Of a stretch of 64,000 nucleotides of DNA, positions 16,831 through 49,964 are shown in pieces; position 1 is the first letter of the stretch, and the number at the start of each line of letters is the position of its first letter. The notes beneath the pieces were generated by a model, which saw only the letters and a program-made list of their open reading frames with translations, did no database searches and was not told where the DNA came from. The stretch comes from Ruminococcaceae bacterium UBA5413 (GTDB lineage Bacteria; Bacillota; Clostridia; Oscillospirales; Acutalibacteraceae), in assembly GCA_002409585.1 (NCBI GenBank), contig DHNP01000017.1, forward strand, positions 56,468-120,467, read 5' to 3'. The translations under genes and the position numbers were made by a program.

Positions 16831-16848
16831 GCGTTTTTAAGTTTTTTC

Positions 16849-16883
16849 CGCCGCCGTTTTTTAAAGTACGGCGGCACTTTTTT
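16849..16883 (+). terminator. Putative terminator after the acyl-transfer cluster
   Basis: CCGCCGT...ACGGCGG hairpin plus T-tract. A second inverted repeat lies at 16892-16943. Confidence 0.55.
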
Positions 16884-17107
16884 GCCCTCAGGAAACGCGC
16901 CGCGCAAAGTCAGGACATCAGGGCGTTGCGCGGCGTACGTTTCAGCGGAACACAAGCTGTGCGGAAGTGTGATTAAATTTTTAAAAAATTGTAAGATATA
17001 TTTACTTTTTACATATATAAATGATATAATTGATAAAATTGAAAAGATATAATTTTTCTCTTTAAAAATATTGTCGCCGTATATTTAACGGAAGAGGGTA
17101 TTAAGAA

Positions 17108-18055: not shown

Positions 18056-18111
18056 CCTGCCGCGCCGCTTTTTTTCTGCCGGCAGGGGAACTTAATGTAA
18101 GGACTTGCGAT

Positions 18112-32457: not shown

Positions 32458-33360
32458 TTAATGCAAAGGCCCCATGATGCCGGCAGCGTTGATTGCCGCG
32501 CCGACGATGCCCGCGTGCGCGTCGAAGGATGAAAGCTCTATCCTGAAAGCGTTCCTCGGGTTTGGGACGCGCAGGTTGACTCTTACGGCGTTTATAAATT
32601 CTTCGAGGGGAAAGCCCTCCATCTCAACCACGCCTCCGCCGAGAATGACGTGTTTTGGGTCTAAAATAGTGATTTCAGTTGCGGCTGCGATGGCGCACAT
32701 GTTTACAGTGTTTTTTGCTTCCTCGCTTGAACGATGCAGCTTAAAGATCTCTTTTACAGGGCAGTTGAATTTTTCAGCGGCAAGTTTTTCCAAAGCTTTT
32801 CCGCTTGCTTTAATTTCAATGCAGCCGGCCTTGCCGCATCCGCACTCCTCTGTGAGCCCGTAAAGCGGTATGTGGCCTAACTCGCATGACGAACCTGTGC
32901 TGCCCCTGTAAATCCGGCCGTCTATGCACATGGCGTTGCCAAGGCCCGTGCCGATGTAAATGCCGATTATAATTCCGCTTTTATCGTAACCTTTTTTCCA
33001 TATGTCGTAGAGAAGTGAAGTGTTTACGTCCCTTTCCATAAATACGGGCATCCCTGTTTTTTTACGCAGGATATCCGCCAGCGGCAAATTGTCAAAGCCC
33101 TTTATGTTTGGGGAGGAGTAGCACATTGAGCGTTTTTCGTCCATCAGCGAAGCTATGGAAAGCGAAAGGCAGCGTATGTTTTCAGAACCGTATTTTTTTA
33201 CTAAAGGCTGAAGCAAGCCGTTTATATAATCATCTTTCCGCACGGCGTCAGAAAGGGCCTCCGTTTTTATTTTAGAAAAACTCAAAAGCTGAAAATCTTC
33301 ACTTACCGCGCCGTATCTTAAATTGGTTCCTCCTATTTCCATGCAAAGGTAATACTTCAT
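32458..33360 (-). CDS. ROK family sugar kinase, D-allose kinase (AlsK)-like
   Basis: EIGGT, RDVN, YIGTGLG, ELGHIPL, CGCGKAGC and ILGGGV; the RDVN and ELGHIPL motifs match my recollection of E. coli AlsK. Confidence 0.75.
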   Translation of the reverse strand: MKYYLCMEIGGTNLRYGAVSEDFQLLSFSKIKTEALSDAVRKDDYINGLLQPLVKKYGSENIRCLSLSIASLMDEKRSMCYSSPNIKGFDNLPLADILRKKTGMPVFMERDVNTSLLYDIWKKGYDKSGIIIGIYIGTGLGNAMCIDGRIYRGSTGSSCELGHIPLYGLTEECGCGKAGCIEIKASGKALEKLAAEKFNCPVKEIFKLHRSSEEAKNTVNMCAIAAATEITILDPKHVILGGGVVEMEGFPLEEFINAVRVNLRVPNPRNAFRIELSSFDAHAGIVGAAINAAGIMGPLH

Positions 33361-33398
33361 CTGTTGGAGACTCCTTTTGTTTAGTGCGCGGCGCGGCT

Positions 33399-34370
33399 TT
33401 AGGCGCGGCCGGCGCTGCCCATAACGTCAATCTTATGAAGGTACAGCTTTTCAAGCTCCGGCCGTATTTTCAGCGTGAAGACGCGGCTGTCTATGGCGCC
33501 GGGGTTTTCGGCAAGGATACGCCTTGTATGCGCGAGGGCGCATATCCAGCCGTCGGTGGCAATGTTTACTTTGCAGACTGCCATTTTAGCAGCTTTGGAT
33601 ATCTGGTCTTCCGGTATGCCCACGGCCTGCTCTATATGACCGCCGTAAGTATTTATCATTTGTACGAACTCAGGCGCTATGGTTGAAGCACCGTGGAGGA
33701 CTATAGGGAATCCAGGGTTGCTTTTTTCTATTTTTTCAAGTATGTCATACCGCAAATCCGGCAGGTTGCCGTTGGCATCCGGCTTGAGTTTTACCATGCC
33801 GTGGCATGTGCCTATGGAAATGGCGAGGCTGTCGGCGCCGGACCTTTTAATGAACTCCGACGCCATACCGGGGTCGGTGTAGAGGCTTTCTAAGTTACCG
33901 CCGCCGCCTTCTTCAGCGCCGGAAAGGATGCCGAGTTCGGCTTCTACAGTAACGCCGCGGCTATGGGCATACTCGGCGGTTTTTTTAGTTAACGCTATAT
34001 TTTCTTCAAAGGGAAGCGCGCTTCCGTCAATCATAATGGATGAGAACCCGTTTTCTACGGCAAGAACGCACTGCTCGTACGTCATGCCGTGGTCAAGGTG
34101 CAGCGCGACAGGAATATCAAGCCCTTCGTTTTTTATACGGTCAACCCCAGACTGCGCGACCCTTGCGAGCATTTCATGCCCCAACTGCCTGTGGAGGTTT
34201 GGGGAAACAAGCAGTATAATGGGTGACTTTTTCTTTATGACGGCATCCATAATGGCGTTGTACTGTTCAATGGTAACGAAATTGAACGCGGGTACGGCAT
34301 AACCGCCGCCGTATGCTTTTTGGAACATTCCGGCAGTGTTTACAAATCCTAAGTCCTTGTAGCTGTACAA
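33399..34370 (-). CDS. fba: Class II fructose-bisphosphate aldolase
   Basis: HLDHG, SSIMIDGS, VEAELG, IGTCHG, VLHGAS and KVN motifs. Confidence 0.9.
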   Translation of the reverse strand: MYSYKDLGFVNTAGMFQKAYGGGYAVPAFNFVTIEQYNAIMDAVIKKKSPIILLVSPNLHRQLGHEMLARVAQSGVDRIKNEGLDIPVALHLDHGMTYEQCVLAVENGFSSIMIDGSALPFEENIALTKKTAEYAHSRGVTVEAELGILSGAEEGGGGNLESLYTDPGMASEFIKRSGADSLAISIGTCHGMVKLKPDANGNLPDLRYDILEKIEKSNPGFPIVLHGASTIAPEFVQMINTYGGHIEQAVGIPEDQISKAAKMAVCKVNIATDGWICALAHTRRILAENPGAIDSRVFTLKIRPELEKLYLHKIDVMGSAGRA

Positions 34371-34410
34371 AGTAATTCCTCCTTAAGTATGTTTGTTGAG
34401 TGTTTGTATG

Positions 34411-35604
34411 TTATTGGGCGATTGTTTTTTTTAATGACGCATATCGGGGCAGATCGCCTATGAGTGGAACGATATAGTTTAAAAACGATGGTTTTATGCC
34501 GTTGTGTGTTTCATTTATATATTCTGTAGGAAGAAAATTATTGCTTGCCGCCACTTTTTCAAGGTCTATTAAGACAGTTTCGGTTTGGTAAGAAAGCTCT
34601 GATGTCCTGCGCAGCGACACCATTTTTCCGCTTGCGCCTTCCAAAGAGGCTTTTACGGCGGCCGCGCCGAGCAGCACGGCTTCCTTTTGGTCCACTGCGG
34701 AAACATTATGCGCTGAACACCTTTGCATCAGCCCCATATCTATGCAGCGTATTTTGCACGGGAAGCGCTTTTTAAGCAGCATATTTAAGTATGGGGTGAC
34801 GCCGCCCATGTTAAGCGGCGGCTTGTTTGCGCCGCGCGCAGCCGGTTCTTCAAAAAGGTAGCTGCCGGATTGGTTTTTTACGCCTTCGGCTACGACGGCA
34901 AAGCATTTTCCCTTTTGGGCGACGACCCTGCCGATGTCGTTTATAAACGCCTCCTCGTTAAACACGGTTTCCGGAACATAGATTAAATCAGGGCCGAAGC
35001 CTGTTAAACCGGCGGCTGAAGTCGAGGCGGCGAGGTAGCCGGAGTTCCGGCCCATTACTTCGGCCGCCATAATTAAATCGGTATCGTAAACCATCATGTC
35101 CTGTATAAGCTCCGAAATGCTTATTACAAGATGCCTTGCCGCCGACGGGAAACCGGGGGAGTGGTCAATATTTGAAATATCGTTGTCTACCGTTTTTGGT
35201 ATTTCAACAATACTGCATTTGTAATTCACTTTTGAAAGGAATTTGTAAAGCTGTAGGCAGCCGCGCACGGAACCGTTTCCGCCGTTCATAAAAATACAGC
35301 GGATATTGAAACGTTTGAGCGTGCCTAAAAACTTGTGGCAGTCTACATCGCTTATCATATGGCGGCACGAACCGAATACCATGGCCGGAGTCTGCTGTAA
35401 AAGCGAAAATTCCGCGGGCTTTTCAAGTGAAAGGTCGAACAACCTTCCGTTTATGGCTCCGGCTAAGCCGTGCTCCGCTGCGTAGAGTTTGCCTATGCTG
35501 CCGCTGTGTTTTGCGCACTCTGTAATGACTCCGTAAGCCGATGAATTTATGACGGCAGTAGGGCCGCCGGATTGTATATATAATGCATTGTACAAAGAAC
35601 TCAC
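34411..35604 (-). CDS. PfkA-family phosphofructokinase (PPi-PFK-like scaffold, GGNGS/PKTVD active site)
   Basis: QSGGPTAVINSS, GGNGS, PKTVDND and EVMGRNSGY motifs. Confidence 0.85.
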   Translation of the reverse strand: MSSLYNALYIQSGGPTAVINSSAYGVITECAKHSGSIGKLYAAEHGLAGAINGRLFDLSLEKPAEFSLLQQTPAMVFGSCRHMISDVDCHKFLGTLKRFNIRCIFMNGGNGSVRGCLQLYKFLSKVNYKCSIVEIPKTVDNDISNIDHSPGFPSAARHLVISISELIQDMMVYDTDLIMAAEVMGRNSGYLAASTSAAGLTGFGPDLIYVPETVFNEEAFINDIGRVVAQKGKCFAVVAEGVKNQSGSYLFEEPAARGANKPPLNMGGVTPYLNMLLKKRFPCKIRCIDMGLMQRCSAHNVSAVDQKEAVLLGAAAVKASLEGASGKMVSLRRTSELSYQTETVLIDLEKVAASNNFLPTEYINETHNGIKPSFLNYIVPLIGDLPRYASLKKTIAQ

Positions 35605-35611
35605 CTGTTTT

Positions 35612-37120
35612 TCATTTTTGCAGTTTTGGGAAGATGTTTTTTATATTTTTATACAGTTCAGTAAAAATCTGCTGTTGTTCCGCATAAGTTTTTACGTTTT
35701 CGGCAACAGGACATACGGGTTCTTTACAGATATGGACTATTTCCTCGCACGCTTCTTCAATGCAGCCGTAGCAGCCGGTGCCTACCGCCGCCATAATGAC
35801 TGCGCCGGTGCAGGCTTCCTCTGTATTTTCAACTGTGTAGACGGGTTTGTTTAAAACATCCGCCGTTATCTGCCGCCACAAAAAGCTTTTTGCGCCGCCT
35901 CCGGAAAAAATCAGCTTTTGACTTGAAATCCCCATGCTGTCGAAAACTTTTGCGCATTCGCATAAGTTAAAGGAAACGCCCTCCATCGTCGCCCTGAATA
36001 TATGACGGAGGTCATGGTTCATGCCAAGGCCGAAGTAGACGCCTTTCGCAGCGGGGTCCATAAAGGGGGTGCGTTCACCTGAAAGGAACGGAATGAAAAT
36101 CAGCCGGTCAGACCCTGCAGGAACTTCAGCGGCGCCTTCGTCAAGCTCTTTAAACGAAGCGGAGTCATGCAGGACTTTATCCCGCAGCCAGTTAATAGTG
36201 TTGCAGCCGTTAAGCGTACCGCCCTGCACGTACCAACGCCCCGGAACCGCGTGGCACCAAGTCTGGCATCTGAGGTCTGGCTTTTCGGGCGGTTTCCTTA
36301 TAAAAGCCGCTATCTGCGACGCCGTACCGATATTGCATACCATAGTGCCCTCTTTAACAATACCGTTGCCGATTAATGCCATGGCGGAGTCCCCGCCGCC
36401 CATTACTACTTTTGTCTTAGGCGAAAGCCCCGTTTCTTTGGCCGCTCTTTGCGAGATATGGCCGGCAACGTCGAACGGCGCCGCTGTGTCCGGCCATATA
36501 TCTGTTTTAAGGCCGAGCTTTTTTATCAGGGGCATGCACCATTTATTGTTTTTAACCGAGTATGCGAACGTTGACGATGCATCCGTGTAGTCGCAGCCGA
36601 TGGCGCCTGTCAGGCGGTAGCGGATATAGTCTTTAGGAAGCATTACGCTTTTAATTTTTCCGTAAACGGCGGGCCTGTTGTTTTTGAGCCAGAGAAGGGA
36701 ACAGATGAGCATGCCGGCGCCGGGCTGGTTAAGCAAGTCTGACTTTATCAGGCCGCCGGCCGCGCGTAGGACGTCATCGCGCTCTTTTGCGGAACGCTGG
36801 TCCAAATGGATAATTGCCGGATAAACAGGTGCCCCGTCGCTGCCAAGCGCAACCATGCCGTGCATTTGCCCGGAGAGGCCGATGCCGAGGATCTTATCAG
36901 GGGGAACGCATGAAGCCTTGAGCGCTTTGGCAACGGCCGACTTGACAGCGTCCCACCATTGACTTGGGTCCTGCTGCGCGTAACCTGCTTTTGGTATGTG
37001 GATTTCGTATCCTGATTTACCGCTTCCGACGGGCCTTCCGCCCAAATCCGTAATAAGCGCTTTAACACTGGATGTGCCGAGGTCTATACCGGCCAGATAC
37101 TCCATTTTTTTCACCCGCAA
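35612..37120 (-). CDS. FGGY family pentulose kinase (xylulokinase-like)
   Basis: GIDLGTSSVK, SGQMHG, DYTDAS, GGGDSA, GTASQ, PFLSGERTP and GGGAKS motifs. Confidence 0.88.
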   Translation of the reverse strand: MRVKKMEYLAGIDLGTSSVKALITDLGGRPVGSGKSGYEIHIPKAGYAQQDPSQWWDAVKSAVAKALKASCVPPDKILGIGLSGQMHGMVALGSDGAPVYPAIIHLDQRSAKERDDVLRAAGGLIKSDLLNQPGAGMLICSLLWLKNNRPAVYGKIKSVMLPKDYIRYRLTGAIGCDYTDASSTFAYSVKNNKWCMPLIKKLGLKTDIWPDTAAPFDVAGHISQRAAKETGLSPKTKVVMGGGDSAMALIGNGIVKEGTMVCNIGTASQIAAFIRKPPEKPDLRCQTWCHAVPGRWYVQGGTLNGCNTINWLRDKVLHDSASFKELDEGAAEVPAGSDRLIFIPFLSGERTPFMDPAAKGVYFGLGMNHDLRHIFRATMEGVSFNLCECAKVFDSMGISSQKLIFSGGGAKSFLWRQITADVLNKPVYTVENTEEACTGAVIMAAVGTGCYGCIEEACEEIVHICKEPVCPVAENVKTYAEQQQIFTELYKNIKNIFPKLQK

Positions 37121-37142
37121 ATGTTTATTTTAACGTTTAAGC

Positions 37143-38189
37143 TCATTTTTGTATGATTTCTATTTCCACGTTGTTTGGGTCGGTTATAAGCATGGTCACA
37201 CATTTTAACGCATCTATGTAAGAAGGTTTTTTCCGCACGGAGACGTTGTTTTTTCTGCAGGCTTCGTAAATTAAATTGATATTATCGGTCTCGATACAAA
37301 AATGCCGGTAAATATCCCTGCTGGTTTCACGCACAGAGGCCGCGTCAGTATGTGTAAGGTAATGGATTAATTCAAGGCGTGTCTGATTTGTAAGGTCAAA
37401 GTAGGTCAGCGTATGGTCGCCCATGTCTATAAAGCCTGATTTTTTAAGCCCGAGTATCCGCGAATAAAAGTTTTCAGATTTTCCGAGGTCCGAAACGTTT
37501 ATGGCTATGTGGTTGATGGAAAGCACGCTTGCCGTGCCCGCAGGCGGTAAATCACCGTTTAAGGAGCGCGCGTGTTCCAAAGGCGTTAAATGGTGCGAGT
37601 CATTTAAAAGCCGTAACATAGTGCGGTCTTTCAGCACGTCTATTATGGTCACTGAGGCGTTGTCAAGTTCAAGGCAGCGGTAAAAGCGGCAGCTCATGTC
37701 CAAAAGGGAAAAAATAATTAATTTAAGTATGCCGCCGTGCGTCACAACCGCGACGGTTTTTTCTGAAGCGCCGTAACGGCTTTTTATATCCTGCACGGCG
37801 GCATCAACGCGGAGCTTCGCGTGGGCTAAAGAACCCTCGCCAGGCATAGGGTAGAAAAACGGCTCGCGCCGGTAATTTAAAAAATCATTGCCAAAGCTGC
37901 TTTTAAGCTCGTCCCTTGTAAGGCCGTCCCATTTGCCGAAATCAAGTTCGCTTAAACGCCCGTCGGCGGTTATACCGGCCGGCCTGCCTGCCGCAAGCGC
38001 GCGGGCGGTATCATACGCGCGGCTCAAAGGCGAAGTATAGATTATATCGATAGGCATGCCTTTTAATGACTCGGCAAGCAGCCCGGCCTGCAGTTTTCCG
38101 CGCTCAGAAAGGGGGGTGTCGCTTCTTCCCTGGTAGCGCCCCTCGGAGTTCCACACGGTTTCAGCATGCCGTATCAGTAAGAATCGCAT
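37143..38189 (-). CDS. Histidine phosphatase fused to a C-terminal VOC (glyoxalase-like) domain
   Basis: RHAET...ELDFGKWDG...VTHGG phosphatase core, then NHIAINVSD...LELI...RHFCI...DPNNVEIEI with the four H/E/H/E VOC metal ligands, all in one open frame. Confidence 0.85.
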   Translation of the reverse strand: MRFLLIRHAETVWNSEGRYQGRSDTPLSERGKLQAGLLAESLKGMPIDIIYTSPLSRAYDTARALAAGRPAGITADGRLSELDFGKWDGLTRDELKSSFGNDFLNYRREPFFYPMPGEGSLAHAKLRVDAAVQDIKSRYGASEKTVAVVTHGGILKLIIFSLLDMSCRFYRCLELDNASVTIIDVLKDRTMLRLLNDSHHLTPLEHARSLNGDLPPAGTASVLSINHIAINVSDLGKSENFYSRILGLKKSGFIDMGDHTLTYFDLTNQTRLELIHYLTHTDAASVRETSRDIYRHFCIETDNINLIYEACRKNNVSVRKKPSYIDALKCVTMLITDPNNVEIEIIQK

Positions 38190-39013
38190 GGCTGGCTTTC
38201 CTTATCAGAGTCGTCATGGCTTTGGGAAGAAGCTACAATCACGTTTGTAACCGATTGGAACGAGTCGACATCCTCTTTTTCGATGCCGTCGTCGGTTATC
38301 AGGGCGGTAATGCTTTGCAGGTCGCTTATCTTTGCAAATGTTACCGTGCCTATCTTGCTGCTGTCGCTGAGGACATAAATTTCGCAGCTTGAGGTAAGCA
38401 CCTGCTGTATGCCGAGCGCATTGTCAAGGTTAGGCGTTGTGACGCCGTTTCTAAGCGTAACGCCGTTGCAGGAAACAAACGCCTTGTCTATATTCAGCCG
38501 TCCCAGCAATTCGCTTTTGATGGGCGATATTATGCTGTGATATTTGTTGCGGACGAAACCGCCAAGTATAAATATAGTGTAGTCGGTGTTTTCTTCCAGC
38601 CATGAAGCAAAATGGATATCGTTCAATACTACGGTCAGGTTTTTTCTCTGCGGCAGCAGTTTTATGAGTTCTCCTGACGTCGTCCCGGATGTTATGGCTA
38701 TGGTGTCGCCGTCCTCAATAAGCTGCAGCGCTTCACGTGCGATGGACCTTTTTTGGTTCAGCATTTTTGATTCCTTTGTAGCCGGAAGCAGCTCCCTGCT
38801 GGTTTTTGTGTTGCTTATTGCGCCGCCGTGGGTTCTCGTTAAAAGATGCTCGTTTTCAAGGTCCCTTAAATCGTTCCTTATGGTCGAGGCGGATACTCCA
38901 AAGATATCGCATAGTTCCGGAACTACAATTTTGCCGCGGTTGTTTATTAATTCGATTATTTTGCCTTTGCGTTCTTCGGCAAACATTGTGGTATTGTTTT
39001 GCTCGCAATCCAT
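38174..39013 (-). CDS. DeoR/GlpR family transcriptional regulator
   Basis: ERKGKII...VSASTIRNDL...RTHGGA HTH, SGTT, and DSSKIG sensor domain. Confidence 0.93.
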   Translation of the reverse strand: MDCEQNNTTMFAEERKGKIIELINNRGKIVVPELCDIFGVSASTIRNDLRDLENEHLLTRTHGGAISNTKTSRELLPATKESKMLNQKRSIAREALQLIEDGDTIAITSGTTSGELIKLLPQRKNLTVVLNDIHFASWLEENTDYTIFILGGFVRNKYHSIISPIKSELLGRLNIDKAFVSCNGVTLRNGVTTPNLDNALGIQQVLTSSCEIYVLSDSSKIGTVTFAKISDLQSITALITDDGIEKEDVDSFQSVTNVIVASSQSHDDSDKESQPCDSY

Positions 39014-39113
39014 ATGTTATCATCTCCATTCCGTACATTCTCATTTTAACAAAGTAAACTGCTATTGTAAATAGCTTTTTAGCATTTGATACGATATTTT
39101 AAGATATTTTCAC

Positions 39114-39143
39114 TTGACACGCGTATTATTTATTGATTATAAT
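39114..39143 (+). promoter_or_regulatory. sigmaA promoter of the transketolase operon
   Basis: Perfect TTGACA-N18-TATAAT. Confidence 0.7.
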
Positions 39144-39274
39144 AAAATACGTTAATAAATAGTACTATATAATACAATACAGCAACAGACAAACAGCGGC
39201 AAGCCTTTAACAACAATGTGCATAAACTGCGGTGCAGAAATTCATTTAATGCGGAAAAGATGATGATATTTATT

Positions 39275-40123
39275 ATGGAAAAAGAAATAGACAGAAAGAA
39301 GTTGGAACTTTTAGCCGCGCGCATACGCCTTGAAAGCATAAGGGCCATGCACGCAAGCGGCGGCGGGCACGTAGGCGGCTGTATGTCCATCGCCGAAGTG
39401 CTTGCGGTACTTTACGGCGGCATAATGCATTACAATCCGGAAAACCCGAAGGCTGAACCGCGGGATAAGCTTGTCCTTTCAAAGGGCCACTGCGGCCCGG
39501 CTCTTTACGCGGCGCTTGCGCTGTCGGGTTTTTTCCCGCTGGAGGAGCTCCTTACGCTGAACAAAAACGGCACGCGCCTGCCGAGCCACTGCGACATGCG
39601 TAAAACGCCGGGCATAGATATGACGACAGGCTCCCTCGGGCAGGGCGCTTCAACCGCGGCGGGGCTTGCGCTTGGGAAAAAGATGAAGAGCGAACCGGGC
39701 AATGTTTTTCTGATTTTAGGCGACGGAGAGTGCGATGAAGGCCAGGTGTGGGAAATGGTTATGTTTGCAAAGCAGCGCCGTCTTGACAACCTTATAACAT
39801 TTGTAGACCTTAACCATCAGCAGCTTGACGGTTATACGGAGGATATATGCAGTATGGGCGGCTTATGCGGCAGGTTTACTTCTTTCGGCTGGGAAAGCTG
39901 CATCATAAACGGCAATGACGTATGCGCCGTTTATGATGCAGCGGCTAAGGCTGTGCTCAGGCACAGCGGTTCCCCCTCGTGCATTGTTTTAGATACTGTC
40001 AAGGGAAAAGGGTGGAGCCTTACCGAAGGCAAAACAGGCATACACCATATGGCGGTGACAGACGGCATGATGGCTGAAGCGGAAAAAGAATTTGCGTTTG
40101 CGTTTGACAAAAGCGTAACCTGA
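39275..40123 (+). CDS. Transketolase, N-terminal (ThDP-binding) subunit
   Basis: GHVGG, SKGH, TGSLGQG, GDGE-x-N ThDP motif and TVKGKG. The start may be 39260. Confidence 0.92.
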   Translation: MEKEIDRKKLELLAARIRLESIRAMHASGGGHVGGCMSIAEVLAVLYGGIMHYNPENPKAEPRDKLVLSKGHCGPALYAALALSGFFPLEELLTLNKNGTRLPSHCDMRKTPGIDMTTGSLGQGASTAAGLALGKKMKSEPGNVFLILGDGECDEGQVWEMVMFAKQRRLDNLITFVDLNHQQLDGYTEDICSMGGLCGRFTSFGWESCIINGNDVCAVYDAAAKAVLRHSGSPSCIVLDTVKGKGWSLTEGKTGIHHMAVTDGMMAEAEKEFAFAFDKSVT

Positions 40124-40140
40124 GGAAAGCGGAGGAATTT

Positions 40141-41094
40141 ATGGAATTATCGGAATATAGCGTTGATATGCGGACATCGCTTTGCAGCACGCTTATAGAA
40201 CTTTCAAAAAACAACGGTAATATCGTATGGCTTGATGCCGATCTGCTGGCTTCAAGCGGCATGATGAAGTTTAAGGAAGCTTTTCCGGAGCGCGTTATAG
40301 ACTGCGGCATACAGGAAGCAAACATGATGGGTGTTGCGTGCGGCCTGTCGGCCGAGGGCATGGTGCCGTTTGTACACTCGTTCGCGCCTTTCAGCAGCCG
40401 CCGCATAGCGGACCAAATTTTTGTTTCCGGCATATATGCCGGCCAGTCGGTGCGCATAGTTGGCAGTGACCCGGGCATTTTGGCAGGCCCTAACGGAGGC
40501 ACCCATATAAGCCTTGAAGACATGGCTATTCTTCGTTCAATGCCGGGGACCGTTGTGCTGGATCCGTGCGATGCGGCGCAGCTTACGGGCGTTATTAAGA
40601 ATACCGTCTCTGAAAAAGGCATTTACTATATACGCCTTGCAAGGAAAAGTAAGGTGAAGTTTTACAGCAGTGGGCAGAACTTTACAGTAGGGAAGGCAGT
40701 GGTGTACAGGGAAGGGTCTGACGTAACCATAATAGCGGCCGGTGCGGTATGTATGGCTGAAGCCGTAAAAGCGGCGGGCATTTTACACGAAGACGGCATA
40801 GAAGCGCGCATACTTGATATGTTCACGGTTAAACCGCTGGACAGTGAAGCGGTTCTGCGGGCTGCCGCGGAAACACGTGCCGTAATCACACTTGAAAACC
40901 ACAATATTTTAAACGGCCTCGGTTCGGCTGTCGCAGAAGTAATAGCGGAAAACAGCTGCGGCGTCCTTTTTAAGCGCATGGGAGTACCGGACTGTAAAGG
41001 TGAAGTGGGTACGCTGGAGTACCTGCTTGAAAAGTTCCATATGTCCGCTTCATATGTTGCGGATACCGCAAAAAAAATGTTAAAGGGAGGATAA
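40141..41094 (+). CDS. Transketolase, C-terminal subunit
   Basis: [26 protein letters not shown] and [10 protein letters not shown] motifs. Confidence 0.92.
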
Positions 41095-41102
41095 TAAATA
41101 AA

Positions 41103-41765
41103 GTGGATAAAGAAAAAATTTTAAAGTGCGTTGACCACACAATATTATCACAGACGGCAACATGGGATGAGGTACAAAAGATCTGCGACGACGCAATGCT
41201 GTACCATACGGCATCGGTATGCATACCGCCGTGCTTTGTAAGTAAAGCAAAAAAGTACGTGGGCAGCCGTATGGCGGTGTGCACCGTCATAGGTTTTCCC
41301 AACGGCTACAGCACGACGGCGGTTAAAGAAGCAGAAACGGGGGATGCCGTCGAAAACGGCGCGGACGAGATTGACATGGTCATTAATTTAGGCTGGGTAA
41401 AAGAAAAAAGATACGACAGCCTTTTAAACGAAATTAAGGCGGTAAAAGCGGCATGCGGCGGGAAAATATTGAAAGTGATTATAGAAGCGTGCCTCCTGAC
41501 GGAAGAAGAAAAGATCAGTATGTGCCGCGTTGTGACGGAGTCAGGCGCTGACTTTATCAAAACTTCAACCGGCTTTTCAACTGGCGGCGCCACTTTTGAA
41601 GACGTAGCCCTGTTTAAAAAATATATTGGCGGGAACGTAAGGATAAAAGCCGCCGGAGGTATACGCTCTTTTGAGGATGCTGAAAAATTCATCAGGCTCG
41701 GCGCTTCAAGGCTTGGGACAAGCAGGCTTGTAAATCTGGTAAAGGGCGCGCGGAAGCCTGAATAA
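41103..41765 (+). CDS. deoC: Deoxyribose-phosphate aldolase
   Basis: [32 protein letters not shown] and KAAGGIR motifs. Confidence 0.92.
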
Positions 41766-41782
41766 TATCGGAGGAAAATGCC

Positions 41783-42727
41783 ATGGATATTTTCTGTATA
41801 GGGGAAGCGGTGATTGACTTTCTCCCGGGCGGGGAACCCGCAAGCTATATACGCAATTTAGGCGGGGCGCCTGCCAACGTTGCCATTGCCGTTTCGCGCA
41901 ACGGCCTGGAGGCGGGTTTTTGCGGGAAAGTGGGCGACGATGACTTCGGGCGCTTTCTTGTAAGCACGCTTAAAGAAAATGGCGTTAGGTACTTATGCGA
42001 CGGCTTCTGCGGCAGTGCCGTTACTACAATGGCGTTTGTAACTCTTACCGGCGGCGGGGAGCGTTCGTTTACTTTTGCGCGCAAGCCCGGCGCTGATATG
42101 TTCTTAACAAAAGAAGATGTAAAGAAAACAGACATAGAGTCAGCGACGGTAGTGCACGCCGGCTCGTGCTCGCTTTCGGCTGAGCCGGCGGCGTCGGCTA
42201 CCTTTTATGCGCTCAGGCTTGCCGGAAGCATGGGCAAGATCGTAAGCTTTGACGTTAATTACCGGAACCTCATGTGGAAAAATGACAGCAAAGCCGCGGC
42301 TGAAAAAATATTTGAGGTTCTGCCGTATGTTGATTTACTAAAAGTTTCGGAAGAAGAAGCCGCGATGCTTGGCGGCGAGGACGGTTTTTTTAACCTTATG
42401 GAAAGTAACGGCCTGTCTGCCGTTGTTGAAACACTCGGACCTGAAGGCGCTGTGTGCTACTTTAAAGGCGGAACCTTAAGGGTGGGGGGGACTTCGGCAA
42501 AGCCGGTTGACACAACCGGAGCAGGAGATGCCTTTTGGGCCGGCTTCCTCTCAAAACTCGTCATGCAGGGAATGGGGCGCGTTTCGGATCTGACGGAAGA
42601 AAAAATTAAAAAGGCAATGGAGTACGGCAACGTGGCTGGCTCGCTGTGCATACTTTCTAAAGGCGCCATATCGTCGCTGCCCACACGTGCCATGGTAGAA
42701 AAATATTTAGAAAAAGGGTTTGATTAA
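41783..42727 (+). CDS. PfkB family carbohydrate kinase (fructokinase-like)
   Basis: GGAPANVA, SFDVNYR and DTTGAGDAF motifs. Confidence 0.92.
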   Translation: MDIFCIGEAVIDFLPGGEPASYIRNLGGAPANVAIAVSRNGLEAGFCGKVGDDDFGRFLVSTLKENGVRYLCDGFCGSAVTTMAFVTLTGGGERSFTFARKPGADMFLTKEDVKKTDIESATVVHAGSCSLSAEPAASATFYALRLAGSMGKIVSFDVNYRNLMWKNDSKAAAEKIFEVLPYVDLLKVSEEEAAMLGGEDGFFNLMESNGLSAVVETLGPEGAVCYFKGGTLRVGGTSAKPVDTTGAGDAFWAGFLSKLVMQGMGRVSDLTEEKIKKAMEYGNVAGSLCILSKGAISSLPTRAMVEKYLEKGFD

Positions 42728-42729
42728 AA

Positions 42730-43434
42730 GTGAACAGCGTCTGGCAGGAACCGTGTATTTTTTCACCTTCGCTTATTTGTTTTGATTTGTGCAATCTGGA
42801 AGAACAGGTACATACGCTGGAGCGTTTGGGCGTGAAAGTCCTGCATGTTGATATTTTGGACGGTCATTTCAGCCCGAGCATGCCGCTTGGCCTTGACACG
42901 GTGAGGCAGCTGCGCGCGAAAACCGACATGGAATTTGACTGCCACGTTATGACAACGCGCAATGAATTTTTTGTAGATGAGCTTTTGGACATAGGCGTGC
43001 AGCAAATTGTTTTTCATGTTGAGACTGAACCGCACGCGGACGGGCTTTTAAACAAAATACGCGCGCGCGGGGTAAGGGCGGGAGTTGCCCTTAAACCTGC
43101 CACACCGCTTGACAGCCTGGACTTTATTATTGAAAAGTGCGATACCGTGCTTTTAATGCTGATAAATCCCGGGTACGCGTCAAGTTCGTCTGAAAAGCAG
43201 GCTGTTTACGCTGAACGTAAAATAAAACAGTTAAGTGATATTATCAGCGGCAGGGAACTTGGTACAAAAATAGAAATTGACGGGCGTGTATCTGAAGAAA
43301 ATATCAAGAAGTACGGCGGAAGTGAGGTCGGCATCTTTGTCACCGGCAGCACGTGCATAAAGAAAAGCGATATTGAAGGTTCGGTTAAAAACCTTAATAA
43401 TATCCGCCGAAGCATTGTAGGCGGAGAGCTGTGA
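42730..43434 (+). CDS. Ribulose-phosphate 3-epimerase family protein, AlsE (allulose-6-P 3-epimerase)-like
   Basis: SPSLIC, HVDILDGHF, DCHVM, MLINPG and IEIDG motifs. GTG start. Confidence 0.8.
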   Translation: MNSVWQEPCIFSPSLICFDLCNLEEQVHTLERLGVKVLHVDILDGHFSPSMPLGLDTVRQLRAKTDMEFDCHVMTTRNEFFVDELLDIGVQQIVFHVETEPHADGLLNKIRARGVRAGVALKPATPLDSLDFIIEKCDTVLLMLINPGYASSSSEKQAVYAERKIKQLSDIISGRELGTKIEIDGRVSEENIKKYGGSEVGIFVTGSTCIKKSDIEGSVKNLNNIRRSIVGGEL

Positions 43435-43457
43435 AATGCATAAGAGGGAGGAAAGCA

Positions 43458-44027
43458 ATGGACTTTGAGGAAAGATATGAAGAAACCTGCGGCTGCGTGA
43501 TTGACGAACTGCAAAGGGCGCTGCGCAGCATAGACCCATCGTCGGTTGAACGGCTTGCAAAGGCGGTGCTTGACGCAGACCAGGTGTTCTTTGTAGGCGT
43601 GGGGCGCGTTATGCTGTCGCTTCAGGCGGTAGCAAAAAGGCTTGCTCATATAGGCGTAAAGGCACACTGCGTCGGGGAGATAACCGAACCCGCCATAACC
43701 GAGAACGACCTTCTGATAGTCGGCTCAGGCAGCGGCTCGAGCCTGTTTCCGGTAGGCATTGCAAAAAAAGCGAAAAGCATACACTGCAAAATAATACATA
43801 TAGGCTCTAACCCTGACGGCGAGATGAAAGGTATAGCCGACTTTATGGTAAGGGTACCTGTGCGGACAAAGCTTTACCTAAGCGATGAAATCGACTCCGC
43901 ACAGCCTATGACGTCGCTTTTTGAACAGACGGTTCTGCTTTTGGGGGACATCGTCGCAAAAATGATAATTGACGAAAAGAAGATTGACATGAAAGCCCTG
44001 TGGAGATATCATGCCAATCTGGAATAG
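43458..44027 (+). CDS. hxlB: SIS-domain sugar-phosphate isomerase (6-phospho-3-hexuloisomerase-like)
   Basis: GVGRV, GSGSG and QPMTSLFEQ...HANLE C-terminus typical of the HxlB family. Confidence 0.8.
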   Translation: MDFEERYEETCGCVIDELQRALRSIDPSSVERLAKAVLDADQVFFVGVGRVMLSLQAVAKRLAHIGVKAHCVGEITEPAITENDLLIVGSGSGSSLFPVGIAKKAKSIHCKIIHIGSNPDGEMKGIADFMVRVPVRTKLYLSDEIDSAQPMTSLFEQTVLLLGDIVAKMIIDEKKIDMKALWRYHANLE

Positions 44028-44036
44028 GAGCGGCCC

Positions 44037-45098
44037 GTGGACAAGAAAACACTTATGAAATACACCGGCAGCCTGCAGCAGGCCGCTTACGTGCGGCCTG
44101 TGAGGTACACCGAGGGCCGCGCCGCCATGGATGCTTTCCAAATAAAGAACGGGAGCCTTATGTTTACCGTTATGGCGGATAAATGCCTTGATATAGGGGA
44201 ACTGTCATATAAAGGCATAAATTTTAATTTCCTGTCAAAGCCAGGCCTGAACGGAAGGAACCCGTTCGACACGGCAGGCAGCGAAGCGCAGAGAAGCATT
44301 ATGGGCGGGCTTTTTTTTACGGCCGGCCTTGAAAACATCTGCGCGCCGTGCACGTTGGGCGGACACGACTACCCTATGCACGGCAGAATGAGGACAACAC
44401 CCGCCGAGCATCTCTCGGGCGATGCCTTTTGGGATGGTGACAGCTACATCCTGACGGTTTCAGGTGAAATGCGTGAGGCGGAACTTTTTGGGGAAAACAT
44501 GCTGCTCCGCAGGAAAATTGAAACGAGGTACGGGGAAAAGTCGGTTACAGTGCATGATGAATTTGAAAACCTGTCGTTCAGGCCTGAGCCTATGATGCTC
44601 CTGTACCACTGCAATGTCGGGTTTCCGCTGCTTGACGGGAACTGCCGCGTCTTTCTGCCGGCAAAAAAGGTTACGCCGAGGGATGAAGCGGCGGCCTGCC
44701 ATATGGAAACGTGGAATAAGATGGAGCAGCCCTTGGACAACGAACCGGAGCGCGTCTATATTTTTGACCTTGCCGCGGATATGTACGGCAATACCATGGC
44801 CGCCGTCTTAAATATGGAAACATATATGGGACTTAAAATAGAGTGGAACCGGAAATACCTGCCGTACTTTATGGAATGGAAGTCTGTGGCGTCCGGCGAC
44901 TATGTAATTGGATTTGAGCCTGCTAATTCAAGCGTTTACGGCAGGCCTTATCATACAGCACACAAATGCCTGCACACGTTGGACCCGTTCTGCAAAGAAA
45001 CGATAAACCTTAAGTTTACTGCCATTGACGGAAAAGAAGAATGTTTGGAGACGGAAAGCAAAATTGAAAAATTACTGAAGGGAGATACTGAAAAATGA
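44037..45098 (+). CDS. DUF4432 / aldose 1-epimerase-like protein
   Basis: DKCLDI, GGLFFTAG, PMHGR, LYHCNVGFPL and GFEP motifs. Confidence 0.85.
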   Translation: MDKKTLMKYTGSLQQAAYVRPVRYTEGRAAMDAFQIKNGSLMFTVMADKCLDIGELSYKGINFNFLSKPGLNGRNPFDTAGSEAQRSIMGGLFFTAGLENICAPCTLGGHDYPMHGRMRTTPAEHLSGDAFWDGDSYILTVSGEMREAELFGENMLLRRKIETRYGEKSVTVHDEFENLSFRPEPMMLLYHCNVGFPLLDGNCRVFLPAKKVTPRDEAAACHMETWNKMEQPLDNEPERVYIFDLAADMYGNTMAAVLNMETYMGLKIEWNRKYLPYFMEWKSVASGDYVIGFEPANSSVYGRPYHTAHKCLHTLDPFCKETINLKFTAIDGKEECLETESKIEKLLKGDTEK

Positions 45099-45793
45099 AA
45101 AGGTCGGAAATAAACGCGGTTATTAAAAAATTCGAAGCACTTCTCGCACAGCATAATTTTGAACTGCCCCCGTTTTGCAAATTTACACCGGAAGAGTGGC
45201 AGTCAAAGAGCCGTGAGTACGATGAAATACGCGACAATATGCTCGGGTGGGACGTTACGGACTACGGCGAGGGGCACTACGACAAGCTGGGGCTTGCGCT
45301 CATTACCCTGCGCAACGGAAATTTCCATAAGAAAGATTTGTACCCTAAGGTTTTTGCAGAAAAAATAATGATGATTGAAGAAGGCCAGGTTTCCCCTATG
45401 CACTTCCATTGGAACAAGATGGAGGACATCATAAACAGGGGCGGCGGGAATATTGTCTTTAAACTTTATAATGCCGATAAAAACGAACAGCTTTCAGATA
45501 CCGACGTGACTGTTTTCCAGGACGGCAGAAATTACAAGGTGAAAGCGGGGCGGGAGATTATTCTTCACCCCGGTGAGAGCCTGACGCTTTATCCGTACTA
45601 TTACCACGAGTTTACCATTCAAAAAGGTTCGGGCACGACGCTTGTCGGTGAGGTTTCCATGACAAACGACGACAACACCGACAACCGTTTTTTAAAACCG
45701 TTAGGCAGGTTCCCCGTTATAGAGGAGGACGAACCGCCTTACAGGCTGCTCTGCACCGAGTACCCTGGCGCCGCGGGCAGCAGCGCGGGCTAA
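45095..45793 (+). CDS. D-lyxose/D-mannose isomerase (cupin, DUF1498 family)
   Basis: MKRSEIN, GWDVTDYG, TLRNG, PMHFHWNKMEDIINRGGG and GEVSMTNDDNTDN motifs. Confidence 0.9.
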   Translation: MKRSEINAVIKKFEALLAQHNFELPPFCKFTPEEWQSKSREYDEIRDNMLGWDVTDYGEGHYDKLGLALITLRNGNFHKKDLYPKVFAEKIMMIEEGQVSPMHFHWNKMEDIINRGGGNIVFKLYNADKNEQLSDTDVTVFQDGRNYKVKAGREIILHPGESLTLYPYYYHEFTIQKGSGTTLVGEVSMTNDDNTDNRFLKPLGRFPVIEEDEPPYRLLCTEYPGAAGSSAG

Positions 45794-45973
45794 GCGGCGG
45801 AAGGCAGGCGGTGCTTTTGCGTTATAATGTAATTAATTCCCGCTTCGGATTCAAAATGTTAATAAAAACTACGAATTAAGAATAAAAATTAAGATTGCGG
45901 AACTGCACGCCAATACTCACAAAAGAAATATGCACAAACCACTAAAAAGTGATAATTAAATATAATTTTATTG

Positions 45974-46002
45974 TTGACTTTTAGTGTGATATGATGTAAA
46001 AT
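45974..46002 (+). promoter_or_regulatory. sigmaA promoter of the sugar ABC operon
   Basis: TTGACT-N17-TAAAAT. Confidence 0.65.
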
Positions 46003-46151
46003 ACAGTTAACAACAGAAAACAAAACTAATCTGCTTAGAAACCCAGTACAAATACAGCAAAACGAGACAAAACAATAGTAAACCAACAAACGTCTATTAA
46101 AAAAGACGTTTCAGGAACAATGGCACTATTCAACACATGAAAGAGGGAGAA

Positions 46152-47288
46152 ATGAAAATGAAGGCAAAATTCGTAAGCGCGGTTCTTAGCGTCTTTCTGT
46201 TAATATCCACATTAGCGGGATGCTCCGGGGGAGGGACCGCTTCATCGGCGGCAAGCGGCAGCACAGCTTCAAAGGAATCTTCTGCTGCGTCTGATACTTC
46301 GGCAGAGTCTGACGATGACGTTTACCACTTGGGTATATGCGTACATTCCCTTGACAACGAGTATTGGGCGCAGGAAGCGGCCGGCGCGGAGCTTTTCGCT
46401 AAAAGCGTAAAAAATTGCAAATACGATGTTTTGACCTGCAACAGCGACGACAACAAGCAGATTCAAGGTATTAAAGATTACATAGCGCGTTACGGCAAAA
46501 AGGCCATTTTTGTAGTTGACCCGTCTTCTACGGCAAACACCGCGAATATCGCGGATGTATGTGAACAGTCCGGCAACTATGTCGTTATACTTGCCCACAG
46601 GGCTGACGGCCTGTACCCTAAAGATTACCCGCACTTTGTTGTAAGCCTTATGCTTTCAGACTATGACAACGGCTACAAAACCGCATGTAAGCTTTTTGAC
46701 TCCATCGGCGGTAAAGGCGAGGTCTGTGAGCTTCAGGGGCAGCTTGGCGACGACAGCGCGGCAAACCGCCACAAGGGCTTTGAGGCTGCGCTTAAAAAGT
46801 ATCCGAACATAAAGTGCGTAGACACGCAGGTTGCCAACTGGGAACAGTCCAAGGCGATGAGCCTTACGGAAGAATGGCTTGTAAGCCACCCGAACATAAA
46901 GGCGATTTACAGCGCAAACGACACGATGGCGCTCGGAGCTGTAGAGGCGCTTAAAAACAAAGGCATGAACACAAAGATTGCGGTCTGCGGCTGCGACGGA
47001 ACTAAAGCTGCGCTGAATGAAATCAAAGCGGGCAACATGCTCTGCACAATAGCAAACAACGGCTTCTGCATTGCCGGCTACGGTGCTTCCTATGCTTATC
47101 AGGCGGCTACCGGCACGCTGGACGTTTCATCCATGGATCCGGCTAAACGCTTGATTTATTGCAAAACGACATATGTAGACAGCTCAAACGTAGATGACGT
47201 AATCGACAAATTTATTACGAAAGGCGATCCCGGATACGATTATTCAGACCTTAGTTACTGCATCGACAGCTACCAGAAAGTCTCATAA
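46152..47288 (+). CDS. Sugar ABC transporter substrate-binding lipoprotein (RbsB-like)
   Basis: LAGC lipobox, Ser/Ala linker, NRHKGF, ANWE and NDTMALGA. The start is 46152 or 46158. Confidence 0.9.
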   Translation: MKMKAKFVSAVLSVFLLISTLAGCSGGGTASSAASGSTASKESSAASDTSAESDDDVYHLGICVHSLDNEYWAQEAAGAELFAKSVKNCKYDVLTCNSDDNKQIQGIKDYIARYGKKAIFVVDPSSTANTANIADVCEQSGNYVVILAHRADGLYPKDYPHFVVSLMLSDYDNGYKTACKLFDSIGGKGEVCELQGQLGDDSAANRHKGFEAALKKYPNIKCVDTQVANWEQSKAMSLTEEWLVSHPNIKAIYSANDTMALGAVEALKNKGMNTKIAVCGCDGTKAALNEIKAGNMLCTIANNGFCIAGYGASYAYQAATGTLDVSSMDPAKRLIYCKTTYVDSSNVDDVIDKFITKGDPGYDYSDLSYCIDSYQKVS

Positions 47289-47322
47289 AAGCAGCATGGC
47301 TTTTTGATAAATGAAATGAAAG

Positions 47323-47358
47323 TTTGGGCTCTCCAAGCGTAGGTGAGCCCAAATTTTT
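47323..47358 (+). terminator. Hairpin between the SBP and permease genes (terminator or mRNA stabiliser)
   Basis: TTTGGGCTC...GAGCCCAAA plus T5. Confidence 0.6.
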
Positions 47359-47392
47359 GGTAAAAGTACAAATAAGGAGGGTATCTGTTTAG

Positions 47393-48418
47393 ATGAAGAA
47401 AAAATTGGTTGAATATATGGGATCTTCAACAGTGGCCCAGCAGTTTACGTATAAAGTCAAACTGGACGCGAAAAATGAAAAAATCCGGCGGTATGCCCCG
47501 CTTATCCTGCTTATAGTTATGACGATAATATGTGCATCAAGCCAAAAAAGTTTTTTTACATGGGGCAATATCGTTAACCTCATGTACCAGATGTCTATCC
47601 CTTTGGTTATATCTGTAGGCCTGACTTATGTTTTGCTGCTTGGCAGCATAGACCTTTCTATCGAGGGTGTTATGGGTTTTGCGGGCTCGCTGGTTGCCTA
47701 CCTCGTTTTAAACCGTACCAACAGCAACAATTTCGGTATTTGGGGCATTATTTTTGTTATTATACTCTGCACGCTTGTAGGCGCTTTCACAGGGGTACTT
47801 CACGTAAAGGCAAGGATAGCCTCGTTTATAGTTACATATGCCATAGGGTGCATAATGACAGGCTTTGCGGTGCTTGTCTATAACAGCAACCCCATACAGG
47901 TTTCGGAGCCTTTGTTCGACAGCATTTCAAGAGGAAGCTTTTTACAGATCCCGTATATAACACTTATCTCTTTCCTTATTTTCCTCATAGGCGCGGTCAT
48001 CTTAAAGTACACCGCGTTCGGACGCGCCGTATATGCCATAGGAGACAACGAGGTGGCTACACGCTCCGCTGGTATTAATGTTGATTTGGTGAAAATAAAG
48101 GTCTTTGCGCTTTGCGCGTGCACCGCGTGCCTTGCAGGCATTTTGCAGTGCGTAAGACTTAAGATAGGGCAGTCCAGCCTCGGCACCGACCAAATGTTCC
48201 CGGTAGTAACGGCCATTGTCGTCGGAGGCGGCAGCCTTTACGGAGGCAAAGGCGGAGCGTTCCAATCGTTTATAGGCGTTTTGATTTACACGGAGCTGGC
48301 CAACTGGCTTACTTTGATGGGTGTTGACCCTTATTTCAAGGAAGTTATTTTGGGCTTGATTATAATAATAGCCGTTACGCTTACTATTGAACGCAACCGT
48401 CAGACGATATCGAAATGA
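47393..48418 (+). CDS. Sugar ABC transporter permease (RbsC-like)
   Basis: GSIDLS, FGRAVYAIGDN and AIVVGG motifs. Confidence 0.9.
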   Translation: MKKKLVEYMGSSTVAQQFTYKVKLDAKNEKIRRYAPLILLIVMTIICASSQKSFFTWGNIVNLMYQMSIPLVISVGLTYVLLLGSIDLSIEGVMGFAGSLVAYLVLNRTNSNNFGIWGIIFVIILCTLVGAFTGVLHVKARIASFIVTYAIGCIMTGFAVLVYNSNPIQVSEPLFDSISRGSFLQIPYITLISFLIFLIGAVILKYTAFGRAVYAIGDNEVATRSAGINVDLVKIKVFALCACTACLAGILQCVRLKIGQSSLGTDQMFPVVTAIVVGGGSLYGGKGGAFQSFIGVLIYTELANWLTLMGVDPYFKEVILGLIIIIAVTLTIERNRQTISK

Positions 48419-48431
48419 AGAGGGCCGGAGT

Positions 48432-49952: not shown

Positions 49953-49964
49953 GAGGTCGATAAA

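Follow-up and report, generated by a model that had tools for sequence, protein, structure and literature searches.

Which sugar a gut bacterium would process with an allose kinase-like protein, an epimerase of the ribulose-phosphate 3-epimerase (Rpe) family and a sugar isomerase of the SIS family, encoded together at a locus that carries no RpiB, is the question raised by the DNA analyzed here, a 64,000-nucleotide stretch of Ruminococcaceae bacterium UBA5413 (contig C18, positions 56468 to 120467; assembly of 1.93 Mb, 91% complete), which is referred to below as the window and whose proteins find their closest matches in Oscillospiraceae and Lawsonibacter-like gut bacteria. A first-pass annotation had described the locus as an allose pathway deprived of its isomerase, a role for which the SIS protein was put forward. 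The description as an allose operon from which the isomerase has been lost does not hold. It is tentatively proposed, with a confidence that stops just short of even, that the locus serves sugar use under DeoR control, is transcribed divergently and is organized around a five-gene cassette, encoding a PfkB-family kinase, the Rpe-family protein (here RpeL), the SIS protein, a DUF4432 protein and a cupin isomerase, together with an ABC importer, through which sugars would flow as set out below. What is new is that it represents a variant of known rare-sugar systems with two uncharacterized enzyme subfamilies and a domain of unknown function (DUF).

Conservation of the cassette and of the RpeL-SIS pair

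A species collection holding one genome per species yielded 394 encoded relatives, such that species-level genomes with the cassette number several hundred among gut Clostridia and their allies. The counts given here refer to the best 80 of these loci (67 to 75% identical), whose hosts belong to the Oscillospiraceae, Lachnospiraceae (Blautia, Hungatella, Laedolimicola), Erysipelotrichaceae and Synergistota; across these families and phyla the gene order of the cassette is constant, with identities of 55 to 77%. RpeL is encoded directly 5′ of SIS in 72 of the 76 scorable loci, accompanied by orthologs of PfkB (60 of 72 scorable loci), DUF4432 (60 of 67) and the cupin lyxose isomerase (61 of 67). 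PfkB is the sole kinase in most loci, and an AlsABC-like importer is usually located 3′ of the cassette. Orthologs of the ROK kinase and of the FGGY kinase of the window occur in only three of the 80 loci, the same three in both cases, while a transketolase ortholog is present in one (L135, where copies 63 to 68% identical lie beside the cassette) and RpiB in none. The three loci with both kinases (L080, L101 from Blautia ammoniilytica, and L117) each comprise one operon in the order ROK-ABC-FGGY-PfkB-RpeL-SIS-DUF4432-cupin, which is headed by the ROK gene (56 to 59% identity), contains the FGGY gene (51 to 53%) and is the only setting among the related loci in which orthologs of the ABC importer of the window (58 to 66%) were found. 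Literature searches turned up no publication dealing with the cassette or with RpeL and SIS as a pair.

In Hungatella hathewayi DSM 13479 (L102; NZ_CP102274.1; 8328 to 10564), one of the four exceptions to RpeL-SIS adjacency, a module-type SIS gene (70% identical) without RpeL follows an ABC importer and two putative esterase genes (PF00756). Distant DUF4432 paralogs (34 to 37%) lie directly beside a split transketolase, without RpeL, SIS or the cupin, in L049, L058, L060 and L061, all from the same order, which hints at a recurring DUF4432-transketolase link.

RpeL retains the catalytic core of its family, including the His/Asp/His/Asp metal-binding and acid-base residues, and its H.D, dcH.M and eiDG motifs align with those of Streptococcus pyogenes RPE (PDB 2FLI). 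Its substrate loops carry ILDG.FSPSMPLGL, NPGYA plus three inserted residues, DGR and GSTC, where Rpe has IMDGHFVPN, PGFGGQ and DGG and AlsE has PGFAGQ and DGSCN. The scores of RpeL lie beneath the cut-offs of the models for AlsE (NF007266, 141.6 versus 271) and for Rpe (TIGR01163, 170 versus 212.6; NF004076, 158.9 versus 165), and in a maximum-likelihood tree it falls into a clade of its own (support 100/99), apart from AlsE and 15 housekeeping Rpe proteins. Judged from alignment and phylogeny, RpeL is a third subfamily of the ribulose-phosphate 3-epimerase family. The label "AlsE-like" of the first-pass annotation is, therefore, withdrawn, AlsE being rejected by the NF007266 score, the loops and the separate clade; E. 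coli AlsE is in fact closer to the housekeeping Rpe of this genome (contig C2, 38% identity) than to RpeL (29%). The possibility, raised in the same annotation, that the epimerase is a plain Rpe is rejected by the cut-offs, the motifs and the tree.

The SIS gene directly follows that of the epimerase, as had been noted previously, although its start is here corrected from position 43431 to the ATG at 43458, which is preceded by an AGGGAGG ribosome-binding site and lies 23 nucleotides past the epimerase stop codon. Its product resembles HxlB, the 6-phospho-3-hexuloisomerase (PHI) of the ribulose monophosphate (RuMP) pathway, in that it passes the HxlB model (TIGR03127, 169.5 versus 160 bits) and aligns end to end with Bacillus subtilis YckF, with the GSGSG, QPMTSLFEQ (QPM.SLFEQ) and C-terminal HANLE motifs intact. 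That SIS is an ordinary RuMP-type PHI, handling formaldehyde with hexulose-phosphate synthase (HPS) and lying beside the epimerase by chance, is nevertheless highly improbable: its partner is an Rpe-family protein and not an HPS such as HxlA (YckG in B. subtilis), the RpeL adjacency recurs in 72 of 76 loci, and HPS was not found in the genome, which holds a single OMPdecase-family gene and no match to the Lawsonibacter HxlA. In addition, the 83 module-type SIS sequences constitute a clade separate from HxlA-linked paralogs, and HxlA-carrying genomes possess a second SIS paralog, 29 to 34% identical to the module SIS, directly beside HxlA in six related contigs. SIS is regarded as PHI-like in chemistry, and its assignment as the RuMP enzyme is rejected, as no HPS was found and the clade is a separate one.

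In those six Lawsonibacter-type contigs (L004 at 16182 to 18644, L072, L078, L081, L086 and L095), the SIS paralog and HxlA (an OMPdecase-family protein) are encoded right after the cassette ABC genes, preceded by an MFS transporter gene in at least L004, L072 and L081, so that both kinds of PHI-like gene lie within approximately 8 kb.

The RpeL-SIS pair also occurs outside the cassette, behind phosphotransferase systems (PTS) of the Mtl or Man type and polyol-phosphate dehydrogenases, including in accessory polyol islands of E. coli. A Lachnospiraceae metagenome-assembled genome (L116), genome G623 and a rare island of E. coli strain SCU-172 combine it with a mannitol-type PTS, a dehydrogenase resembling MtlD and a phosphatase of the HAD family; there, RpeL and SIS are 48% and 59% identical, respectively, to those of the window. 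In a different Bacillota order, two genera (G497 and G709) harbor an operon of the type RpeL-SIS-TalC-Tkt-MtlD-IIA-IICB, and the dehydrogenase and PTS of G497 pass mannitol models; in L107, the pair is accompanied by a sorbose-type PTS, two Zn-dehydrogenases and another Rpe-family gene. When E. coli genomes were queried by blastn with the DNA running from the epimerase to the cupin gene, only an hxlB-like gene was recovered, in 12 strains; the E. coli cupin and DUF4432 genes discussed below were located by Pfam searches of single records. An allose-6-P isomerase would depend on a supply of allose-6-P; most cassettes lack an AlsK-type kinase, the PTS versions yield ketose phosphates, and SIS is tied to RpeL and not to the kinase. 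A function of SIS as allose-6-P isomerase is therefore unlikely. Its sequence and contexts predict that SIS would act on ketose phosphates as an obligate partner of RpeL. Automated annotation would label the two central cassette enzymes "6-phospho-3-hexuloisomerase" and "ribulose-phosphate 3-epimerase," as has already happened in the E. coli island; given this context, neither label is safe at face value.

One of the PTS operons (L153, on contig C1 of G497) contains two RpeL copies, at 9182 to 9886 and 13417 to 14121, which share 98.4% DNA identity and 233 of 234 residues. These copies flank SIS-TalC-Tkt within a single operon and represent a recent tandem-like duplication, the sister genus G709 (L156) having one copy.

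Proposed chemistry and competing routes

From the gene families and their conserved contexts we infer a flow in which the cupin enzyme would isomerize an imported manno- or lyxo-configured aldose to the ketose, DUF4432 would supply the ring form or anomer required by the kinase (possibly the furanose form for PfkB), and PfkB would phosphorylate the ketose, a step that may be performed for pentuloses by the XylB-like FGGY kinase of this lineage. The ketose phosphate would next be processed by RpeL and SIS working as a pair, by way of 2,3-enediol chemistry, to provide intermediates for transketolase and glycolysis. The cupin and PfkB steps correspond to the route that the first-pass annotation had offered as its alternative, in which these two enzymes supply a ketose-6-P to the epimerase, and that route matches the conserved core.

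Two sub-mechanisms fit the evidence about equally well. The preferred one, which we regard as possible while stopping short of calling it probable, is a pentose-phosphate route: D-lyxose and D-arabitol, being manno- or lyxo-configured, would be converted to xylulose-5-P, and RpeL as Rpe and SIS as an Rpi-type enzyme would form, together with the transketolase, phosphofructokinase (PFK), class II aldolase and histidine phosphatase paralogs, a self-contained, transaldolase-independent, non-oxidative pentose-phosphate set, in which the last three could run a sedoheptulose-bisphosphate bypass. SIS would then represent an analog of RpiB, and since it belongs to PF01380 and not to PF02502, any such likeness would be one of analogy and not of homology. 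This route would explain the transketolase genes in the window operon and beside the L135 cassette, the RpeL-SIS-Tal-Tkt operons and the XylB-like kinase, as well as the additional PFK, aldolase and phosphatase in a genome where no transaldolase was found. Transaldolase and fructose-6-phosphate aldolase (PF00923) were not detected in the 91%-complete assembly, which encodes three split transketolase pairs, five class II aldolases and two PFKs (the second, on contig C3, being 26% identical to that of the window), and this gene complement suggests a transaldolase-independent pentose-phosphate pathway. The yeast sedoheptulose bisphosphatase SHB17 belongs to the same phosphatase superfamily as the histidine phosphatase of the window; it is conceivable that the histidine-phosphatase::VOC fusion, for which no counterpart was found among the 80 related loci, acts as a bisphosphatase beside PFK and fructose-bisphosphate aldolase (FBA).

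Several points weigh against the proposed flow and its pentose-phosphate version. An ordinary Rpe/Rpi role would be redundant, as housekeeping Rpe and RpiB are present in all five genomes tested, and the phosphate loops of RpeL are unlike those of every Rpe. By our own reasoning, the canonical stereochemistry of PHI applied to ribulose-5-P would yield arabinose-5-P and not ribose-5-P. Hexuloses are the usual substrates of PfkB kinases, and most loci nevertheless have no kinase other than PfkB; transketolase or transaldolase accompanies the pair in only a few lineages. Finally, the flow does not account for the AlsK-like kinase, DeoC or the phosphatase::VOC fusion.

Hexuloses provide the other sub-mechanism, which, taken by itself, is considered unlikely. 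PfkB would produce a non-fructose ketohexose-6-P, such as tagatose-6-P when the starting sugar is talose or tagatose; SIS would move the carbonyl from C2 to C3, RpeL would epimerize C4, and SIS would return the carbonyl to give fructose-6-P, amounting to a 4-epimerization by two enzymes. Such a scheme accommodates the obligate pairing of a PHI-type with an Rpe-type enzyme, the retention of PHI motifs in SIS, the position of RpeL as neither Rpe nor AlsE, and the spacing between phosphate and carbonyl in a 3-ketohexose-6-P, which equals that in ribulose-5-P. It is also consistent with the class II aldolase genes found in 17 of the 80 loci, several of which carry a second PfkB, with the sorbose-type PTS and GatD-like dehydrogenase of L107, and with the presence of PfkB and DUF4432 in a validated tagatose cluster, the DUF4432 position being taken in alpha-proteobacteria by a tagatose-6-P epimerase (PMC9720028). 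Against it stand the associations with transketolase, transaldolase and XylB, which it leaves unexplained, and the fact that no precedent for such chemistry was found in literature searches. D-Talose is, moreover, very rare in nature.

The resemblance to an allose pathway derives chiefly from the ROK kinase, a protein of 300 residues without a helix-turn-helix domain, which narrowly passes the allose kinase model (NF007251, 256 bits versus a cut-off of 253; the next family, ROK glucokinase, scores 124) and whose best solved relative is E. coli AlsK (PDB 3HTV, 31% identity). Strong homologs (33 to 42% identity) were present in only five of 300 same-order genomes sampled, and the four with a readable context reside in canonical or partial als operons (AlsA-AlsC-AlsE-AlsK-AlsB-RpiB), in which AlsE and RpiB are 40 to 55% and 58 to 72% identical, respectively, to the E. 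coli proteins. By model score and neighborhood, the kinase is a member of the AlsK clade, in agreement with the first-pass annotation, and it may phosphorylate D-allose. As its homologs (34 to 42% identity) lie in standard als operons, the lineage knows the standard allose pathway, and the window kinase would be a diverged member placed elsewhere: together with its 56 to 59% identical orthologs, it accompanies the cassette, not the AlsE, AlsBAC and RpiB genes of an als operon. In the two cassette-bearing genomes of the order sample (G126 and G167), no ROK homolog was found at E ≤ 1e-45.

The absence of RpiB from the window, on which the missing-isomerase idea was founded, is confirmed in that no RpiB/LacAB domain was found there; the genome nevertheless encodes RpiB on another contig (C10:116327-116740), as the only PF02502 match in the assembly and in a TsaE-TsaB-RpiB-Upp context. 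Because RpiA was not found in the 91%-complete assembly, this RpiB is taken to be the housekeeping ribose-5-P isomerase and would be available for allose-6-P. A lack of RpiB in module-bearing genomes would have pointed to SIS as an Rpi; RpiB was present in all four that were searched for it. The rpiB gene of E. coli K-12 likewise stands as a unit of its own next to als, outside the operon proper.

A complete allose route, in which D-allose would be phosphorylated by ROK to allose-6-P, isomerized by SIS (replacing RpiB/AlsI) to allulose-6-P and epimerized by RpeL (replacing AlsE) to fructose-6-P for PFK and FBA, with the cupin and PfkB feeding allulose, is improbable. Beyond the score and neighborhood of the ROK kinase, it can call on the four loci (the window and the three Blautia-type operons) that join an AlsK-clade kinase to RpeL-SIS, on AlsB as the top family of the importer substrate-binding protein, on the PG[FY]A alanine common to RpeL and AlsE, on DeoR, DeoC, PfkB and an Rpe-family gene shared with the validated Klebsiella psicose locus (PMC6020474), and on the reported capacity of DeoC to produce allose-6-P from glycolaldehyde and erythrose-4-P (reviewed in PMC8879981). 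These are opposed by the absence of a ROK ortholog from 77 of the 80 cassette loci, by the encoded RpiB, by the retained PHI motifs of SIS, and by the operons in which the pair stands behind polyol-phosphate dehydrogenases, which yield ketose phosphates such that no aldose-6-P arises. In the PHI substrate, as in ribulose-5-P, the carbonyl and the phosphorylated carbon are three carbons apart, against four in allulose-6-P, which places the carbonyl of the PHI substrate one carbon nearer the phosphate. Characterized D-lyxose isomerases, which act on D-lyxose and mostly also on D-mannose, with D-talose and L-ribose as test substrates, are furthermore not reported with D-allose (PMC8378251). Within the favored flow, the AlsK-like kinase may, instead, provide a lineage-specific side entry through which an aldohexose would be admitted; the RpiB of the genome could isomerize any allose-6-P so formed.

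Of the first-pass interpretation there thus remain the AlsK clade, an epimerase distinct from Rpe and the cupin/PfkB route, while the missing isomerase and the assignment of SIS to allose-6-P do not stand. A weaker form of the latter survives, since SIS occupies, in several operons, the slot in which an Rpi would complete an Rpe/transketolase/transaldolase set. Generalized from the same idea, the PHI-like SIS subfamily could join RpiA and RpiB as a third, non-orthologous class of aldose-ketose isomerase, acting on ribose-5-P (and perhaps allose-6-P) in accessory sugar operons and always teamed with RpeL, although we consider this doubtful.

Solving this chemistry would correct a systematic misannotation and would indicate which rare dietary sugars and sugar alcohols (lyxose, mannose, tagatose, allulose or arabitol-like) are used by abundant gut bacteria. 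Either a pentose/hexose-phosphate isomerase of a new class or a new two-enzyme epimerization route useful in rare-sugar biocatalysis might come to light.

Relationship to known sugar systems

Like the window, the allose system of E. coli K-12 (alsBAC-alsE-alsK with rpiB/alsI) combines a ROK kinase of the AlsK clade with an epimerase of the Rpe family and an ABC importer of the ribose/allose type. The window differs in that its epimerase is not AlsE, its locus lacks RpiB and its regulator is of the DeoR type instead of AlsR, and it additionally encodes PfkB, the PHI-like SIS, DUF4432, the cupin isomerase, transketolase, PFK, FBA and a XylB-like kinase.

A DUF4432 gene is also part of the D-tagatose cluster of E. 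coli Nissle 1917, which is experimentally validated and tagatose induced, and which likewise possesses an ABC importer, a PfkB-family kinase, a class II ketose-bisphosphate aldolase and a PFK for the second phosphorylation (PMC9720028). The similarity is, however, at family level only (DUF4432, 33%; kinase, 26 to 28%; aldolase, 32%), RpeL, SIS and the cupin isomerase are absent from the Nissle cluster, and the window PfkB scores 93 against a cut-off of 420 in the TagKinase model, such that orthology to the Nissle-type tagatose kinase and aldolase is not indicated. The psicose (allulose) locus of Klebsiella pneumoniae (PMC6020474) resembles the window by gene family in its PfkB-type kinase, Rpe-family epimerase, DeoR and DeoC, but it has a permease in place of the ABC importer and no SIS, DUF4432 or cupin.

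The D-lyxose isomerase cluster of E. coli O157:H7 (Z5688/ECs_5070) carries a cupin 50% identical to that of the window (Sakai ECs_5070), together with an ABC importer, PfkB and a class II aldolase, and lacks RpeL, SIS and DUF4432. A tagatose reading was considered for such cupin clusters and was found not to be transferable, since the O157 PfkB does not significantly resemble the tagatose kinases of Nissle. In O157:H7 Sakai, this cluster (L012, 5159700 to 5168850), comprising a regulator, PfkB, a class II aldolase, the cupin, ABC genes and a histidine kinase, lies between yjcS and yjdP, and exactly that site is occupied in K-12 by the als operon and rpiB (L009, 4306870 to 4313799); two sugar systems therefore alternate there.

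Listeria pentitol operons are said, in work by Kentache et al. dating from 2016, to carry also most of the pentose-phosphate enzymes (Rpe, RpiB, Tkt and Tal). Like the PTS versions of the RpeL-SIS pair, the pentitol operons of Firmicutes such as Listeria monocytogenes and Enterococcus avium (cited in PMC6685057) combine a PTS with polyol-phosphate dehydrogenases that lead to pentose phosphates, whereas here the PHI-like SIS takes the isomerase slot and RpeL serves as the epimerase.

Layout of the divergent operons and neighboring genes

Positions 32458 to 50930 hold two divergent operons separated by a spacer of 204 nucleotides (Table 1). The minus-strand operon encodes, in order, DeoR, the histidine-phosphatase::VOC fusion, the XylB-like FGGY kinase, a PRK14072-type PFK, the class II aldolase and the ROK kinase, and the plus-strand operon encodes the split transketolase, DeoC, PfkB, RpeL, SIS, DUF4432, the cupin D-lyxose isomerase and four ABC importer components. 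The genes named in the first-pass annotation (ROK, Rpe-family, SIS, PFK, FBA, PfkB and cupin) were all recovered at the positions it had assigned to them, apart from the corrected start of SIS.

Table 1. Features of the divergent sugar locus, numbered from the first nucleotide of the window
Feature	Position	Strand	Basis
ROK sugar kinase, assigned to AlsK clade; last gene of minus operon	32458..33360	-	PF00480, residues 4-290
Class II ketose-bisphosphate aldolase paralog	33399..34370	-	PF01116; TIGR00167 subfamily cut-off passed
PFK paralog, PRK14072 (pyrophosphate-PFK-like) subfamily	34411..35604	-	NF010675, 384.6 bits vs 273
FGGY kinase, xylulokinase-like	35612..37120	-	TIGR01312 (XylB), 431 bits vs 380
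Histidine-phosphatase::VOC (glyoxalase-like) fusion	37143..38189	-	PF00300 + PF00903, one frame
DeoR-family regulator; first gene of minus operon	38174..39013	-	PF08220 + PF00455
Divergent promoter region	39043..39143	.	Consensus matches only
Split transketolase (N half 39218-40123, C half 40141-41094)	39218..41094	+	PF00456; PF02779 + PF02780
DeoC (deoxyribose-phosphate aldolase) paralog	41103..41765	+	TIGR00126, 247 bits vs 117
PfkB-family ketose kinase; core cassette gene 1	41783..42727	+	PF00294
RpeL; core gene 2	42730..43434	+	PF00834
PHI-like SIS isomerase; core gene 3	43458..44027	+	TIGR03127; PF01380
DUF4432, mutarotase-like; core gene 4	44037..45098	+	PF14486, 295.7 bits; PDB 3TY1
Cupin D-lyxose/D-mannose-type aldose-ketose isomerase; core gene 5	45095..45793	+	PF07385 full length, E 6e-100
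Monosaccharide ABC importer (substrate-binding protein, permease, ATPase, permease)	46137..50930	+	Pfam + NCBIfam

Candidate promoters, identified as consensus matches only, face both operons: a sigma-70-type TTGACA-18-TATAAT sequence on the plus strand (12 of 12 positions, 39114 to 39143) and a match of 10 of 12 positions with an extended TG on the minus strand (39071 to 39043). The ABC importer may possess a promoter of its own at 45974 to 46002.

Several products fall short of the more specific family models. The class II aldolase is under all FBA equivalog cut-offs, and PfkB finds its best NCBIfam match in fructokinase at 217 bits, under the cut-off of 450. The cupin isomerase covers profile positions 1 to 222 of PF07385 and misses the Gram-negative equivalog (276 versus 350), and the substrate-binding protein of the importer reaches AlsB, its top family, with 125 bits versus 335. 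A second DeoC, 70% identical to that of the window, is encoded on contig C10.

Convergent with the end of the ABC genes lies a gene for a ROK-family regulator of 369 residues (51159 to 52268, minus strand), which is followed by a further sugar ABC system from position 52698. ROK-type regulators are also encoded upstream of the cassette in many of the related loci.

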